A stretch of 64,000 nucleotides of DNA from a virus (taxonomy: Duplodnaviria; Heunggongvirae; Uroviricota; Caudoviricetes): the IMG/VR virus record IMGVR_UViG_2744054962_000001. One strand, given 5' to 3'. The notes under the pieces were generated by a model. That model saw only the letters and a list, made by a program, of their open reading frames with translations, was not told where the DNA came from and did no database searches. Below are positions 41,201-60,722 of this stretch, in pieces. The position numbers and the translations under genes were made by a program. Numbering within the stretch: position 1 is the first letter of the stretch; each line of letters opens with the position of its first letter.

Positions 41201-42397
41201 ATTGAAGAAATGAAAAAAACCGTGGCTGAAGTTGAACGTTCTAGTGCCGAAGTTACGACAAACATTGAGGCATTGGCTAAAACAAACATCGATCTTGCTT
41301 TGCGTCAGGATGAAGATCAGCACAAGCAGATGGTGAGTAATGCGAAGATCACCACAACTCAGAAGGCTTTTGCAGACGATATATCTGCAATGGCTACGAA
41401 AATGGAGGAAATTCGCGCTGAAATAAATGAGGATATCAGAGCTTCAATCACTGAAGAAACAACGGCTCGTGTAGATGCTGATAATGCTATTGCAAGCAGA
41501 ATCACCAAACTTGAATCAAAGATTAACGATGATATTTCTGCCGCAATTGTGAGTGAACAAGAGGCACGAGCTAGTGCCGATGAAGCACTTTCAAAAGAAA
41601 TACTATCGTTACAAGCCAAAATTGAAGGCGATATTAGTGCAGCTATATCTGAAGAAAAAATTGCCCGAGCAACTGCTGATGAATCTTTAGCACAACAGAT
41701 AACCACATTGAAGAGCCAGACGGGTAAAGATATTAAGGCGGCTGTAGCAGAAGAGACGAAAGCCAGAACTGACGCTGATTCGGCTTTGGCTTCTAGCATC
41801 ACTAATCTACAGGCGCAAACGAGCAAAGATATTAATGCCGCGATTACGTCTGAGGCGACTGTGCGCACAAACGCCGACAATGCTCTAAGTGGACGAATTG
41901 ACACCTTAAAAGCATCAGTTGATGGAAATACAGCGACAATTCAAGAGCAGGCAACTGCTATTGCTGATACTAACAAAAAGGTTTCAACCGCGTGGACGTT
42001 GAAGATGGAAACGTCAACAAGTGGTGGGCAAAAATATGTCGCAGGTATTGCGCTTGGAATTGACACCACGGGGCTTTCCCAGTTTTTGGTGCAAGCAGAT
42101 CGATTTGGTCTAGTTAACTCAGTTAACGGAAAGATCACCACACCATTTGTTATCGAAAACAGCGTTGCATACATGAATGGTGCGTATATTAAGGATGGTA
42201 CTATCACAAATGCAAAGGTAGGTGACTTGCAATCAACAAACTTCGTAAGCGGACGAGCCGGATGGCGATTTGGTAAAAATGGAACGCTTGAGATCAACGG
42301 CAATAGTGGCGGCAATGGGAGATTGGTTATAAATGGTCAGAGGATTGACGTTTATGATGACAATAATGTCCTTCGAGTGAGGATTGGTCGGCTTTGA
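38237..42397 (+). CDS. Host specificity / central tail fibre protein (lambda gpJ-like)
   Basis: ~1386 aa after K/I genes; C-terminal ~20-aa coiled-coil repeat series. Confidence 0.9.
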   Translation: MEQFKKKKLPLFIAGAGGKKSSKSSSRTPVEADDTVNSRAMAAILDLLGEGVIGGLVNGARSIFIDDLPIVNEDGSSNFSGITWDFRDGSQDQTPMSGFDFVETPKSVNIQLKKTHYVTVSIDNDEADRVRVIMKFPSLRSIDKKTGDTNGTTVEYKFQIANGDSTFVDVVAEGEKSVGIKLTAKKTGVYYRSYELKLPKPGRAYKVRVVRITDDNSSQYLYNDTWVDSIGEIVDTPMNYPNSVLVGLKVNSEQFGSTMPSRSYLVRGLKIRVPSNYNEASNTYDGVWDGTFKLLSSSNPAWILFDLLTNARYGLGQYVSESMIDLGQLYQIGRYCDEEVDDGFGGKEKRFAINTQITSRQDAYRLIQDIAGAFRGMVFWAGGMVNIMQDSPSDPVMMFTNSNVKDGLFTYKGSARKDRPSVALVTYNNKEDGYKQNIEYVEDQDAMRRYGERKTEVVAFGCTSRGQAHRVGLWLLYTARMESDVITFTAGLDASFLMPGETVLIQNKYRAGKRNSGRIVAFTKNSVTLDAPVSLAKGGCFIRILNQEGKIVERDVLETGENITKVTFSKALSSAETPVLNGVWTITEPDLEPMRVRIVNIAQGETPGSFDITAVENNPSKYEAIDNGATLIPQNTTVLDPTYSKPSNLQITEGTYLSSPGNLSVKLTATWEGKSPEYWISWRRSDANNVSNWQSARVTEEQYEIVNVAENGRYDFQLYAVSFNGKKTEIISTVYQVLGTMTPPDAPTSLTAVGDYRNVILNWVNPDSVDLDHINVYASQTNNLDTAKLIAESASTTFTHAGLGDSETWYYWVRASNKRGMLSPPNSNLGTEATTRDVLSFLTGKITSSELGQTLLEEIDSKVSQEAVDSIYQQMEESLKILDDKFTDADQRLEEAQNNLKTEVSGTVSKVEDALKEVANSNAALIQLQETVSEQGKAVAGAVEAANAALDNSSALIAEEREARVEGDLANAKEIEAMKSTVDSSLATIEEMKKTVAEVERSSAEVTTNIEALAKTNIDLALRQDEDQHKQMVSNAKITTTQKAFADDISAMATKMEEIRAEINEDIRASITEETTARVDADNAIASRITKLESKINDDISAAIVSEQEARASADEALSKEILSLQAKIEGDISAAISEEKIARATADESLAQQITTLKSQTGKDIKAAVAEETKARTDADSALASSITNLQAQTSKDINAAITSEATVRTNADNALSGRIDTLKASVDGNTATIQEQATAIADTNKKVSTAWTLKMETSTSGGQKYVAGIALGIDTTGLSQFLVQADRFGLVNSVNGKITTPFVIENSVAYMNGAYIKDGTITNAKVGDLQSTNFVSGRAGWRFGKNGTLEINGNSGGNGRLVINGQRIDVYDDNNVLRVRIGRL

Positions 42398-57341: not shown

Positions 57342-58664
57342 ATGGAAAAACTGATCGCCCTAAAGCACAAGCTGGATGCCATAAAAACGATGGGAACCAA
57401 CGCCAAAAAAGAGGCGCTGGCCAACCTTGATAAATTTGAGCAGAGCATGGTCTCGCTAATGCTCAACCCATTCATTCGATTCGGTGTGAAGAAGTACAAA
57501 GTGGTCGAGCCACTCGATACTTCCGTACCCATCGACCAGAAGGTAGTCGAGCTGCTGGAGAAGCTGGCGGCGCGCGAACTGACCGGGAACGCGGCCATTA
57601 CTGCTGTTGAGTCTATCGTGGCGTCAATGTGCGCCGATGGGCAGGACGTGTTCCGTCGTTTCCTCTTAAAAGACCCAAAAGCGGGTGTTGGGATTAGCCT
57701 ATGCAACAAGGTTTTTGAAAATCCCATTCCGAAATTCGAGGTGCAGCTGGCGTCACCGTATAAAGAAAAAGGCGACAAATACCCCTTCAAGCCAAACCCT
57801 AAAGCAAAATGGCCTATGATTGGCAGCCTTAAGCTCGATGGTTTGCGAGTAATTTGCGAGGTTATTGTTGACGAAGAAGAGGTTAACTTCCTTTCTCGTA
57901 CTGGTAATCCAATCACGTCTCTCGATCACCTAAAGCCAGCCATGCTCGAATTAGGCAAACTTTCAGGCCACAAACACATCTTCTTCGATGGTGAAGGAAC
58001 TGCCGGTTCATTTAACCAGTCCGTATCTGCATTGCGCAAAAAGAACGTGCAGGCAATTGGCGCTATTTATCATGTTTTCGACTTCTTCCTACCGGAATGG
58101 CGGGCACAGGCTAAATCCAAAGAGTATGCAAAGACAGGTATGAAGCTGAAAGAGCGCCTGGCTATTCTCGTGGCGTTGTTCAAAAACGATCGCAGTGAAG
58201 GCTACGCACAAGACATTCACCTGCATCCGTTCTATATCATCCATAGCCACGAAGACTTCATCGAACGCTTCATGAAACGCCTGGACGATAACGAAGAAGG
58301 GGAGATGGGCAAAGATCCGAACTCTGTTTACGAGTTTAAACGTACCCGCAGCTGGTGGAAGTTAAAAGACGAAGATTCAGAAGATGGTGAAATTATCGAT
58401 TTTGAGCCGGGCGATCCGGACTCTGGTTTTGCCAACACGCTTGGAAAAATTGTTATTCGTCTTGAAAACGGCGTCATCGTTCGTGCGAGCGGTATTAAGC
58501 ATAAATATCTGGACGAGATCTGGAACAACAAAGAGAAGTACCGTGGTCGTATTGTTGAGGTTCATTGTCACGAGAAAACACTGGATGGCAGCTTACGCCA
58601 CCCCCGACTGAAATGGCCGCGTTGCTTACGCGATACAGAAGATCGAATCGGAGATAAAGAATGA
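57342..58664 (+). CDS. ATP-dependent DNA ligase
   Basis: Adenylation motif I KLDGLR; motif III-like FFDGEG; GGAGG RBS. Confidence 0.8.
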   Translation: MEKLIALKHKLDAIKTMGTNAKKEALANLDKFEQSMVSLMLNPFIRFGVKKYKVVEPLDTSVPIDQKVVELLEKLAARELTGNAAITAVESIVASMCADGQDVFRRFLLKDPKAGVGISLCNKVFENPIPKFEVQLASPYKEKGDKYPFKPNPKAKWPMIGSLKLDGLRVICEVIVDEEEVNFLSRTGNPITSLDHLKPAMLELGKLSGHKHIFFDGEGTAGSFNQSVSALRKKNVQAIGAIYHVFDFFLPEWRAQAKSKEYAKTGMKLKERLAILVALFKNDRSEGYAQDIHLHPFYIIHSHEDFIERFMKRLDDNEEGEMGKDPNSVYEFKRTRSWWKLKDEDSEDGEIIDFEPGDPDSGFANTLGKIVIRLENGVIVRASGIKHKYLDEIWNNKEKYRGRIVEVHCHEKTLDGSLRHPRLKWPRCLRDTEDRIGDKE

Positions 58665-58840: not shown

Positions 58841-59039
58841 ACGGGAGAAGGAAACGCTTCATGAAATCAGTAAGTGGCCGGAGTTCCCTGAGTACTGGAA
58901 GCCTAAAACGCGAGCTAAGTTAGAGCGGTTAGGGTTGGTTGCAAACGTTTCTGAAACGAAGTGTTCGGCCAACTACCAGTTAACTGATAAAGGGAAAGTA
59001 TTGCTACAGCAATTAGTAGAATCAGGAGTGTTAAAATGA
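58824..59039 (+). CDS. Hypothetical protein (71 aa)
   Basis: AAGGAG RBS; overlaps 3' end of 58661..58840 in another frame. Confidence 0.45.
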   Translation: MIVLSKREKETLHEISKWPEFPEYWKPKTRAKLERLGLVANVSETKCSANYQLTDKGKVLLQQLVESGVLK

Positions 59040-59188
59040 TTCCATACATCTCATTAGCTTTTATGGGTGGCTTCCTTATCGGCTTCGGCATCTGTCGTGA
59101 TTTAATTAAGCAGGAACTTAAAACCAAAACACTGTGCATCGGAAAGCGTGTGTATCGGGTAGTTCATGAAACAAAGGTTAGAAAATGA
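59036..59188 (+). CDS. Small single-pass membrane protein (50 aa), paralogue of 58661..58840
   Basis: ATGA overlap with upstream stop; AGGAG RBS; TM helix then GKRVYRVVHET motif. Confidence 0.4.
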   Translation: MIPYISLAFMGGFLIGFGICRDLIKQELKTKTLCIGKRVYRVVHETKVRK

Positions 59189-59475: not shown

Positions 59476-59483
59476 AAACATAT

Positions 59484-59506
59484 CGATAAGTATTTACTTA
59501 CTTATC
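59484..59506 (+). promoter_or_regulatory. ATAAGTA-family motif (GATAAGTATTTACTTACTTATC)
   Basis: Palindromic copy at start of the non-coding leader that precedes the tRNA cluster. Confidence 0.45.
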
Positions 59507-59865
59507 CTTTGTGTATAAGATGACTTTGTTTTCGTTGAGACGCGACTGTTTGAACTTAAATACAAGTGCAAACGAAGAAGTCTATCTGGCAGTAGCCTAA
59601 TAAGCCAAACACCAGCGAGGTCAGTTTCCAGCCTCGTTACCGAAATGGGACACACTGAGCGAGTGTGATTGCAGAACGCAGGAGGGAACATTCATGTTCC
59701 CTCCGATGAAGTAACAGAATGGGCGGTTGGTATATTTTCAACTCCATATGACTCCCGGATTCTTAGCCACTGACCGCCCATCCTGTTACGTCATTTTGTT
59801 CAATTATGTCGTTTATACTGGGTTAAAAAGCGGCGACGTAGCCCGGCTGGTATGGTTAGCCAGCA

Positions 59866-59987
59866 CACAACGTTGAGGCCATTACATTTTTATCAATTCT
59901 AAGGTTCTATTCACAGAGATACCGGCGAGCGTTGATATGTAACATGTTGGGCAAACATTCAATCGGAGTAGTGGCCTCAACGTTGTG
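59866..59987. repeat. Perfect 16-bp inverted repeat pair (CACAACGTTGAGGCCA / TGGCCTCAACGTTGTG) separated by 90 nt
   Basis: Arms at 59866-59881 and 59972-59987 are exact reverse complements. Confidence 0.8.
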
Positions 59988-60253
59988 AAGACGGGATTGT
60001 TGTGTAGGTTTAACCACTGTTGCCATTGGTGCCTGTTTTCACAACAAATGATTCCATACATCACATTGTATAAATTACAAAGTAGGTGCTGTCCTCAGAA
60101 ACATCATCTACTTAAAGATTTTGCCTTCTACTATTGAGCGAAGTCGAAAGCGTCTGGCACTAACGAAAAGTGCAAGTAGCGGTGCGTTTCATGGCAGAAA
60201 CTAAACCGTCGCGATTGGCACTGTTGAGTAATAAATACTGGCAGTGCTGAATT

Positions 60254-60328
60254 GATGGTGTAGCTCAGCGGTAGAGCAGTTGGCTGTTAACCAACTGGTC
60301 GGTGGTTCGAATCCACCCACCATCGCCA
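60254..60328 (+). tRNA. tRNA-Asn (anticodon GTT)
   Basis: Cloverleaf: acceptor GATGGTG/CACCATC, D-arm GCTCAGCGGTAGAGC, anticodon loop CTGTTAA, T-loop TTCGAAT, encoded CCA. Confidence 0.85.
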
Positions 60329-60330
60329 AT

Positions 60331-60406
60331 GCCGGTTTAGCTCAGTTGGTAGAGCACCTGCCTTGTAAGCAGGATGTCAGCGGTTCGAATCCGTTAACCG
60401 GCACCA
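60331..60406 (+). tRNA. tRNA-Thr (anticodon TGT)
   Basis: Acceptor GCCGGTT/AACCGGC, anticodon stem CCTGC/GCAGG with loop CTTGTAA, T-loop TTCGAAT, encoded CCA. Confidence 0.85.
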
Positions 60407-60414
60407 ACACAATT

Positions 60415-60501
60415 GGAGAGTAGAGAGCATGGTGCTCAAGCGGTCTTGAAAGCCGTCCCATTGCGCAAGCGATGATGGTTCGATTCCATTACTCTCCGCC
60501 A
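60415..60501 (+). tRNA. tRNA-Ser (anticodon TGA), class II with long variable arm
   Basis: Acceptor GGAGAGT/ACTCTCC, anticodon loop CTTGAAA, variable arm with TTGCGCAA hairpin, T-loop TTCGATT, discriminator G plus CCA; anticodon stem has two G-U pairs. Confidence 0.65.
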
Positions 60502-60503
60502 GA

Positions 60504-60581
60504 CACAGCGTTGAGCGGTTTGGCCTATTAATCAACTCGATTAAGACTCCGCTAACATAAACCAGACCGCTCAACGCTGTG
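60504..60581. repeat. Perfect 16-bp inverted repeat (CACAGCGTTGAGCGGT / ACCGCTCAACGCTGTG) directly after tRNA-Ser
   Basis: Arms 60504-60519 and 60566-60581, 46-nt spacer; arm sequence related to the 59866 repeat. Confidence 0.8.
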
Positions 60582-60659
60582 ATAGACAATTACGGCAGAC
60601 GTTCTTAACCATAGCTTGCTAACATCATAGCAACACTTTTTTTCAGCGCAAAATTCAAA

Positions 60660-60679
60660 GGGGCTTCGGCCCCTTTTTT
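60660..60679 (+). terminator. Rho-independent terminator
   Basis: GGGGC-TTCG-GCCCC followed by TTTTTT. Confidence 0.75.
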
Positions 60680-60722
60680 GCAACTGAAAGAGTCAAGTCT
60701 ACGAACTTTGTAGGAAGAAATA

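Follow-up and report, generated by a model that had tools for sequence, protein, structure and literature searches.

A putative message-domain-only relative of tmRNA shared by unrelated enterobacterial phages

Transfer-messenger RNA (tmRNA) is regarded as a universal bacterial design, in which a transfer RNA (tRNA)-like half and a message half are united in one molecule. A permuted form in two pieces is found in alpha-proteobacteria, cyanobacteria and other groups (RF01849, RF04321); its coding piece has the 5' acceptor strand at its start and joins by pairing to an acceptor piece that is encoded just upstream. Among bacteriophages, a 2014 survey of ssrA genes recorded tmRNAs only in eight mycobacteriophages and Bacillus phage G, together with a gene in mycobacteriophage DS6A that comprises the tRNA-like domain only, and none in enterobacterial phages (PMC4131195). 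The present work concerns a 64,000-nucleotide (nt) stretch of viral DNA (IMG/VR record IMGVR_UViG_2744054962_000001; called the window below, at its full length), in which positions 59526-59684 of the + strand hold a module that resembles the message half of tmRNA. Related modules occur in phage HK620 and in relatives of phage Felix O1; HK620 and Felix O1 had been sequenced by 2014 and were, we presume, included in the survey dataset.

It is very probable, in our judgement, that the module is a structured RNA gene derived from tmRNA. As predicted from its sequence, it is a mobile, message-domain-only relative of tmRNA found among unrelated enterobacterial phages; full-text searches of the literature turned up no account of a tmRNA-like module in such phages. 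Selection has preserved it in at least four of their unrelated groups, among them the model phages HK620 and the Felix O1 relatives. A tmRNA consisting of the message half only would be a new variant of the two-half design.

A tmRNA-like message module

At 59568-59603 the module contains a reading frame that lacks a usable start codon, GCA AAC GAA GAA GTC TAT CTG GCA GTA GCC TAA TAA, which would specify ANEEVYLAVA followed by two stops. The tag template of Escherichia coli tmRNA reads GCA AAC GAC GAA AAC TAC GCT TTA GCA GCT TAA TAA, or ANDENYALAA with the same two stops, and over the tag region and the A-rich stretch upstream of it 32 of 47 nt are identical to E. coli ssrA. The window therefore holds at this point what the messenger RNA (mRNA)-like domain of a tmRNA consists of, namely a start-less frame, a short tag and stop codons. 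Upstream of GCA, an A/U-rich context with an A four bases before the resume codon is kept as in real tmRNAs; the conserved A at position -4 has a role in E. coli tmRNA. Module types A2, B and C have no ATG, GTG or TTG ahead of the tag, and their frame is closed by a stop a few codons before it. A small open reading frame (ORF) in the +1 frame, reading (A/G/C)TG-CAA-ACG..., was discarded as a candidate, its start (ATG, GTG or CTG) not being kept and its substitutions being radical.

Across 147-160 loci the tag occurs in 12 variants, all ten codons long and of the form A-N-[DE]-x-x-[YF]-L-A-V/A-A: ANEEVYLAVA, ANEEMYLAVA, ANDNQYLAVA, ANDNVFLAVA, ANDEQFLAVA, ANEDTYLAVA, ANDDQFLAVA, ANEDAYLAVA, ANDTQYLAVA, ANDNAFLAVA, ANEDSYLAVA and, in one copy, ANEEMYLAAA. 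No copy has an internal stop or a frameshift, and TAT/TAC, TTT/TTC and GCN vary synonymously. Overall, the frame has the behaviour expected of a decoded sequence. Because the CUGG/CCAG and UAGCC/GGCUA helices overlap codons 7-10 and may account for part of the constancy of LAVA, the coding argument is weaker there, but not for codons 3-6 or for the fixed length.

The window belongs to an SSU5-like phage-plasmid. Its segment 59400-60720 shares 99.1% identity with Escherichia phage Cyrano (OV696614) and 97% with the 'phage CMS-2020a' plasmids, and the same stretch is present on plasmids in 246 of 5,426 complete E. coli genomes and on the chromosome in none. A sensitive blastn search extended the family much further: hundreds of phage records contain unannotated DNA that matches some 110 nt around the tag at 73-78% identity. 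IMG/VR viral contigs were then scanned with two patterns. The first, which yielded 93 loci, was biased because it fixed the LAVA codons; the second, which yielded more than 120, left the 3' half of the tag free, and its real module copies amount to about 150-160 loci. The carriers are SSU5-like phages, P22-like phages including HK620, Felix O1-like phages and Klebsiella siphophages. The module is found within the tRNA cluster of Citrobacter phage Michonne, a Felix O1-like myovirus, behind a TTGACA-17-TAAGAT promoter; between pR'/qut and the late terminator tQ in the P22-like HK620; and upstream of tRNA-Ser in the Klebsiella siphophage Carvaje. In all three the DNA at this place carries no annotation, and the module has the orientation of the tRNAs and genes on either side. 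No tRNA is present within -400 to +900 nt in 45 of 147 loci, whose tags are ANEEMYLAVA (19), ANDEQFLAVA (16), ANDDQFLAVA (7) and ANDTQYLAVA (3). Public records leave the module unannotated or have small ORFs called over it, such as the 'C-type natriuretic protein' of SSU5 (41773-42359).

A bacterial origin of the LAVA tag was considered and rejected: ANxxx[YF]LAVA was met in 3 of 185,579 species genomes (one genome per species), all three Enterobacteriaceae, on contigs of 29-109 kb, the one from Kluyvera having the size of a phage-plasmid (108.7 kb). Apart from such phage-like contigs, none of these species representatives encodes the tag, and among them no bacterial tmRNA carries it.

A hand-derived structure was evaluated on 34 distinct modules from four phage groups. 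The 5' UUUUCG is followed by a small hairpin and, just ahead of the resume codon, by a PK1-like fold; helices around the stop codon come next, and two H-type pseudoknots lie downstream of the tag as in tmRNA. Its pairs are formed in 87.4% of cases, against at most 44% with the partners slid, and most of the cells scored as unpaired result from register errors in the type A rows of the alignment. Changes on both sides of a pair occur in stems a1, a2 and b1. Pseudoknot a (59616-59650) is built from a1, CGAGG (59616-20)/CCUCG (59632-36), and a2, UUCCA (59626-30)/UGGGA (59646-50). Between phage families a1 appears as CGAGG/CCUCG, UGAGG/CCUCA, CAAGG/CCUUG or CAGGG/CCCUG, and a2 as CCAG/CUGG, CCGA/UCGG or CCAA/UUGG. 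Pseudoknot b (59651-59680) consists of b1, CACACU (59651-56)/AGUGUG (59662-67), and b2, GCG (59659-61)/CGC (59677-79), followed by A59680. Here b1 varies among CACAC/GUGUG, CGCAC/GUGUG, CGUAC/GUAUG and CGCAU/AUGUG, and b2 extends from the 3 bp of the window (GCG/CGC) to GCCC/GGGC, GCCCAC/GUGGGC and GCCCUGA/UCAGGGC. Every type has a single purine after b2 and then, at once, a long hairpin. The pairings of the PK1-like fold, AGUUUU/GAAACU and CUUUG/CAAAG, are 82-86% paired with one both-sided change, and are shortened or shifted in type A. In tmRNA, helix P2 closes the ring of pseudoknots and connects it with the tRNA-like domain. A P2-like closing helix between UGUUCUUUCC and GGUAAGAGCA, repeats of HK620 and Carvaje, did not survive scrutiny, since each strand covaries with its own local partner (loci L024 and L014).

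A covariance model (R1) built exclusively from P22-like, Carvaje-like and Felix O1-like copies, with no SSU5-like sequences, has exactly one match in the 64-kb window, at 59526-59684 (73.1 bits, E = 1.5e-14). Rfam models recognize the same spot weakly: 17.3 bits for RF01850 (gathering score 84) and 21.7 bits for RF04321 (gathering score 47) in the window, with 29.9 bits as the best score in any relative. Such sub-threshold matches recur at this spot in four unrelated phages, tmRNA_permuted being among them in all four; the window also matches beta_tmRNA, Michonne alpha_tmRNA, and HK620 and Carvaje both tmRNA (RF00023). No family of Rfam 15 reaches its gathering threshold at the module, in the window or in the relatives. 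Standard tools (ARAGORN, Rfam) miss the module.

Upstream lies a promoter-like site at 59493-59521 (+ strand), TTTACT (59493-59498) and TAAGAT (59516-59521) separated by 17 nt, which is conserved in SSU5-like relatives (TATGAT in locus L007). Felix O1-like phages have TTGACA-17-TAAGAT/TATAGT at an equal distance from GTTTTCG. The site of the window scores 8/12, under the threshold of the consensus scan, and was read directly from the sequence. We infer that the module is transcribed from this promoter of its own, with a 5' end near 59527-59529.

Stems, tRNA genes and boundaries of the surrounding RNA unit

The initial annotation of this region described about 750 bp of ORF-poor leader with inverted repeats, followed by three tRNA genes. 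The leader is indeed poor in ORFs (none in 59476-60253 exceeds 65 amino acids), but it starts with a conserved promoter-like site of its own and a probable discrete RNA gene, the module at 59526-59684. The repeats were examined in 18 aligned SSU5-like leaders, each about 72-75% identical to the window. Across these relatives, nine local helices, among which are those at 59681, 59706 and 59866, are paired in 99.4% of cells, compared with 33-53% when the partners are slid by 1-3 columns, and 12 pairs are altered on both sides. None of 500 shuffles matched the observed percentage paired, the number of both-side-changed pairs and cells, or the covariation score. Numerous one-sided substitutions in the stems turn G-C into G-U on the + strand, which identifies this as the folded strand, G-U being tolerated only there. 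As RNA, the + strand leader is strongly folded (-252 kcal/mol, z = -7.1), 21 kcal/mol better than the - strand. The inverted repeats are RNA-level helices of the + strand. Of the roles first offered for them, processing signals or small RNA genes suit such helices, whereas recombination sites are the least supported, given that the G-C to G-U changes are on the + strand only and that the stems covary.

The helices begin directly after the module. I7 (59681-59704), correctly noticed before as a perfect palindrome with 11-bp arms, is the hairpin GGAGGGAACAU-UC-AUGUUCCCUCC with a 2-nt loop, in which five pairs change on both sides among SSU5-like relatives. The equivalent stem in relatives and in HK620 and Carvaje surrounds inserts of 13-80 nt; I7 is the counterpart of these 'cargo' hairpins in other phages. 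In the P22-like phages, the hairpins behind the module read GGUAAGAGCA...UGCUCUUUCC between CACAAC/GUUGUG flanks. The cargo inside them is unrelated from one phage to the next, and each stem of the array covaries with its own partner. Hairpins of this form followed by GUUGUGGUG...CACCACAAC, with inserts that differ entirely between phages, were seen in HK620 (L002, 1377-1830), in L004, L011, L014, L024 and L081, and in other P22-like and Klebsiella loci. In each such hairpin a stem of 7 bp is succeeded by an unpaired U (a UxU mismatch) and by CC, which resembles the acceptor end of a tRNA precursor, and a T-arm is present in some of the inserts.

Domain I2 (59706-59794) has a stem of 22-24 bp around a 45-nt loop. 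Initially listed as a 15-bp repeat (59713/59773) with one mismatch, its arms are longer, at 59706-59727 and 59773-59794 (22 nt, 91% complementary); all 24 of its 24 pairs are 100% paired in relatives, and several G-C to G-U changes on the 3' strand indicate that the fold is read from the + strand. Two conserved hairpins follow at 59804-59864, UUAUGUCGUU/GGCGACGUAG (59804-13/59832-41) and GCUGGU/AGCCAGC (59846-51/59859-64), both 100% paired by RNAalifold and pair counts. Domain I3 (59866-59987; 19-20-bp stem, 82-nt loop), whose stem starts CACAACGUUGAGGCC, likewise contains the perfect 16-bp pair reported at 59866/59972 but extends it to 20 nt at 59866-59885 and 59968-59987 (95% complementary). 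It is 98.5% paired. Three of its pairs show two-sided changes, one example being a G-C that is A-U in 8 of 18 sequences. A further inverted repeat that had been overlooked, GUUGUGAAGACGGG/CCUGUUUUCACAAC at 59982-59995/60032-60045, forms domain I6 (59982-60045). Its inner stem is wholly replaced yet kept in relatives (GUGGCCACGG/CGUGGCCAC, GUGGU/GCCAC, GUGAAAUUAGG/CCUGGUUUCAC). I3 and I6 have a GUUGUG strand in common that can pair with CACAAC on either side, an arrangement that could act as a switch or a coaxial junction. Strand sharing of the same kind is seen in the P22-like hairpin arrays.

Between I6 and the tRNA genes lies a copy of coding sequence: ATGATTCCATACATC... at 60050-60137 duplicates the start of a small membrane-protein ORF at 59036-59188 (MIPYI...), and in relatives the copy is ended by an early stop (MIPYIQ followed by a stop). 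It looks like a degenerate, duplicated gene fragment within the non-coding array. The adjoining box GCGUCUGGCACUAACGAAAAGUGCAAGU (60150-60177, + strand) is nearly invariant in relatives. The 5' end of the transcript unit, UUUUCGUU...GAGACGC (59529-59544), is complementary to GCGUCU...AACGAAAA (60150-60169), some 620 nt downstream, and in the minimum-energy fold the resulting stalk closes a 640-nt leader; the pairing is unproven because one mismatch is uncompensated in type A2. P22-like cargos also hold a sequence, CGAAAG(C), complementary to the same invariant 5' GUUUUCG.

The three tRNA genes (60254-60501) are all present as first described. On the + strand, ARAGORN calls tRNA-Asn(gtt) (60254-60328), tRNA-Thr(tgt) (60331-60406) and tRNA-Ser(tga) (60415-60501), each of which ends in an encoded CCA. 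Rfam supports the Asn and Thr genes at 75-76 bits; the Ser gene matches the tRNA-Sec model alone, below threshold, so that its identification depends on ARAGORN. The impression that they are phage-encoded was borne out: the 248-nt cluster occurs with 100% identity on SSU5-like phage-plasmids only, phages P1, P7 and D6 have Asn and Thr genes with 92% identity to those of the cluster, and chromosomal E. coli tRNAs are at most about 80% identical. By these comparisons the tRNAs are assigned to the phage and not to the host. In relatives the set varies (Asn-Tyr-Thr, Asn-Thr, or Asn with or without Ser). CYRAN_40 of Cyrano is a hypothetical protein annotated antisense over tRNA-Thr and tRNA-Ser (window 60377-60589, - strand).

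Directly 3' of the last tRNA, domain I1 (60504-60581) is retained in relatives regardless of which tRNA is last. The 16-bp repeat recognized here was again the core of a longer element, 25 nt at 60504-60528 and 60557-60581 (88% complementary), and its stated kinship with I3 holds, both stems starting CACA(A/G)CGTTGAG and ending CTCAACG(T/C)TGTG. Its covariation is partial: GAGCGG/CCGCUC becomes GAACGG/CCGUUC, and some C-A mismatches are uncompensated. Two terminator-like hairpins conserved in relatives follow at 60616-60679 (+ strand), UUGCUA-ACAUCA-UAGCAA with a U-run (60616-60643) and GGGGC-UUCG-GCCCC with U6 (60660-60679); neither was listed by a simple scan, and they were read from the sequence. 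The best explanation of about 59493-60680 is a single phage non-coding RNA operon that runs from the promoter to the two terminators. Its long stems, whose lengths of 19-25 bp and conservation fit the roughly two helical turns of a ribonuclease (RNase) III stalk, are probably processing stalks or protective structures for maturation of the RNase III, RNase P or RNase E type. Beyond the operon, positions 57342-58664, which end 0.8 kb before it, hold a gene of the ATP-dependent DNA ligase family (PF01068, E = 5e-13), and an integrase gene lies 1.7 kb downstream.

Possible roles and competing explanations

Our working proposal, which we put forward tentatively, is that a tmRNA-derived RNA consisting of the message domain only provides an alternative tag template in host trans-translation. 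The module would derive from the mRNA-like half of tmRNA, without the tRNA-like half; it would be transcribed from its promoter, processed at the stems and recruited, through host SmpB and ribosomes, so that its tag is translated. Rescued proteins in phage-carrying cells would then end in ...YLAVA, and not in ...YALAA. Hydrophobic C-termini of the ...LVA kind are strong ClpXP degrons (bioRxiv 10.1101/2024.01.29.576913), and by analogy YLAVA would plausibly be a degradation tag. That the tag is actually decoded is a step we likewise regard as possible rather than established. To our knowledge, no process other than trans-translation decodes a GCA frame that lacks a start codon in this manner. 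The proposal would require the module to reach a stalled ribosome without an alanyl-acceptor domain of its own.

Several observations weigh against it. Trans-translation as known needs an aminoacylated tRNA-like domain together with SmpB. In tmRNA this domain has an acceptor stem of 7 bp with G3-U70, a T-arm whose loop is of the TPsiC type and a 3' (N)CCA, and the molecule is alanylated, binds SmpB and EF-Tu and tags non-stop products. Every search for such a domain came back empty: ARAGORN detected no tmRNA in the window, also with relaxed thresholds, and none in 147 related loci (extracts of -400 to +900 nt); Rfam at E <= 5 returned no tRNA-like domain of tmRNA over all 64 kb; many P22-like loci have no canonical T-arm site in about 10 kb; and a strand complementary to the 5' GUUUUCG followed by NCCA is not above chance in 3.2 Mb of loci. 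Outside the tag, local alignment with host ssrA is no better than that of shuffles. The PK1-like fold and the stop-codon helix are weakly supported in type A, and the constancy of LAVA could come in part from RNA structure. Short exact matches between leader and ssrA (GGGCGGTTGG, TTCAACTCC, TAAAAAGC-GC and GACGGGATT) were set aside as chance, none being conserved in relatives. With no tRNA-like domain found, no helix P2 and Rfam scores under the gathering values, the module falls outside tmRNA as defined, though the anatomy of the message domain is clearly present.

Candidate acceptor elements were nevertheless encountered. A custom scan for a T-arm, 7 nt and NCCA retrieved only the three tRNAs in the window, and a 9-mer in the I2 loop (TTCAACTCC) is not conserved in relatives. 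Hairpins beside the module contain a T-arm in 18 of 48 B-type (P22-like and Klebsiella) loci and in 1 of 79 SSU5-like loci. Michonne (L003, KT001916) has at about 896-990 a permuted tRNA-like element that ARAGORN does not call, with a T-arm and 3' acceptor strand ACCCUUC-GCCA, then 4 nt, then the matching 5' strand GAAGGGU, which leads into a D-arm of normal form. It was dismissed as a candidate for the missing acceptor piece: it is found in L003, L050 and L088 and is absent from the module-carrying L067, L068 and L083. The tRNA clusters of Felix O1-like phages hold other unannotated tRNA-like elements (L003 at 1796-1911 and 2082-2153; L047, L050, L067, L083 and L085), which ARAGORN misses; they possess NCCA, a T-arm and an acceptor strand that matches, yet their length (about 116 nt) or their arms are abnormal.

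The same facts can be read in other ways. The module could be a decoy or competitor that mimics the message-pseudoknot half of tmRNA without ever being decoded and titrates whatever binds that half, be it ribosomal protein S1, the 30S mRNA channel or a tmRNA-cutting RNase or toxin, so as to modulate rescue during infection. The failure of all searches for a tRNA-like domain would be expected of such an RNA, the helices over codons 7-10 account for part of the constancy of the tag, and a partial mimic has a precedent in the tRNA-like-domain-only gene of DS6A, which is thought to titrate SmpB (PMC4131195). We nonetheless think a decoy rather unlikely, because the unpaired codons 3-6 vary only among acidic and polar residues and Y/F, because the tag stays at ten codons with no internal stop although neighbouring linkers carry indels, and because the A four bases before GCA and its A/U-rich context are kept as in real tmRNAs. 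Moreover, we know of no factor that binds the message half alone with high affinity. Alternatively, the RNA could be a complete tmRNA that goes unrecognized, with a non-canonical acceptor in cis or nearby, in the arm of pseudoknot b or in the T-arm cargo hairpins. The invariable succession of b2 3' strand, one purine and long hairpin speaks for this, as do the 9-12 bp of stacked b1 and b2, the relatives in which a T-arm and a 7-bp acceptor-like stem with unpaired U and CC stand beside the module, and the complementarity of 5' GUUUUCG to the CGAAAG box of those cargos. Yet a G3-U70 pair and an encoded CCA are both lacking, just 18 of 48 B-type and 1 of 79 SSU5-like loci have T-arm cargos, the I7 loop of the window has 2 nt, and other Felix O1-like phages do not have the permuted element seen in Michonne. 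We judge a complete tmRNA unlikely. A little less probable again is its most specific form, a self-sufficient miniature tmRNA of new topology, modelled on plant-virus tRNA-like structures, which have pseudoknotted acceptor arms: cleavage after A59680 and addition of CCA would make such an arm of pseudoknot b. Once charged, this RNA of roughly 155 nt could move into stalled ribosomes together with host SmpB and append (X)ANEEVYLAVA, and phages as different as SSU5, HK620 and Felix O1 would bring a ribosome-rescue and tagging RNA of their own.

Explanations that dispense with a tmRNA-related function fare worse. On one, the leader is that of an ordinary tRNA operon, its stems serve tRNA processing or stability and the tmRNA-like stretch is an inert, hitch-hiking relic; the module does often adjoin tRNA genes, debris such as the 60050-60137 copy of the ORF start at 59036 lies nearby, and cargo between the conserved stems is freely exchanged between phages. 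This is improbable in view of the 73-80% identity of modules between phage families without other similarity, the compensatory changes in four stems, the conservative changes in the tag, the promoter of its own in two groups and the lack of a nearby tRNA in 45 of 147 loci. A DNA-level role, in which the CACAAC...GTTGTG repeats are recombination or cassette sites resembling integron attC, or integrase binding sites, would account for the recurrence of these motifs at hairpin bases and for inserts that differ completely between phages, and an integrase gene does lie 1.7 kb downstream. It is very improbable, in our estimate: the many substitutions that give G-U on the + strand would leave A-C mismatches on its complement, the unit that contains the stems runs from promoter to terminator and includes tRNAs, and lytic Felix O1-like phages have the same architecture with no annotated integrase in their fetched loci. 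The junction motifs also fit the attC core consensus, RYYYAAC/GTTRRRY, only loosely. As for small protein genes ('hypothetical protein', the 'C-type natriuretic protein' of SSU5, CYRAN_40), ORFs of 34-70 amino acids do exist on both strands and some were annotated by depositors. A protein-coding reading of the leader or module was rejected for either strand, however, on account of 1- and 2-nt indels between relatives, which fall inside the ORFs; conservation tracks base-pairing and not codons, and CYRAN_40 runs antisense over two tRNA genes. We give this reading next to no credence, and the hypothetical-protein annotations over the module and the tRNAs are very likely spurious ORF calls.

Returning to the proposed tag template, decoding of the tag would mean either that ribosome rescue can use a template brought in by some novel route or that there is a very small acceptor of non-canonical form; without decoding, these phages would use an RNA mimic against the rescue system. 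Either way, the module offers a handle on how phages manipulate the rescue of stalled ribosomes. This is of relevance to defence systems that cleave tRNA or mRNA, and fits the frequent siting of the module beside phage tRNA genes.

Relation to described systems

Structured phage RNAs of unknown role that lie by tRNAs or are co-transcribed with them include the T4 species 1 and 2 RNAs, GOLLD and ROOL. None of these has a sequence or Rfam match to the leader described here, and we know of none with a tmRNA-like tag frame. The long stems of the leader recall the RNase III stalks of rRNA operons and of T7 early RNA, as well as tRNA punctuation, in that near-perfect stems of 19-25 bp separate RNAs within a precursor; they depart from such stalks in their CACAAC/GUUGUG ends and in the strand shared by I3 and I6, and their role as stalks is a prediction of this work.

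With bacterial tmRNA (SsrA; RF00023, clan CL00001) the module shares a start-less frame that begins at GCA (Ala) and extends over ten codons resembling ANDENYALAA, one or more UAA stops beside a helix, an A/U-rich upstream stretch with A at -4, and H-type pseudoknots that flank the frame. It differs in having no acceptor stem, T-arm, CCA end or closing helix P2, two pseudoknots only on the downstream side, a length of about 155 nt against about 360 nt, a LAVA end in place of LAA, and Rfam scores of 10-30 bits against gathering values of 47-84. The two-piece permuted tmRNAs come nearer in that their coding piece is a separate RNA, and RF04321 gives the best Rfam matches to the module, sub-threshold as they are (20-30 bits); neither an acceptor strand nor an acceptor piece was found for the module, in contrast to these systems. 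Finally, the tmRNAs of mycobacteriophages (Bxz1, Catera and others) and of Bacillus phage G, with the gene of DS6A, set the precedent for a complete or partial tmRNA gene on a phage. Those genes are complete or comprise the tRNA-like half only, whereas the module of the enterobacterial phages corresponds to the opposite half.

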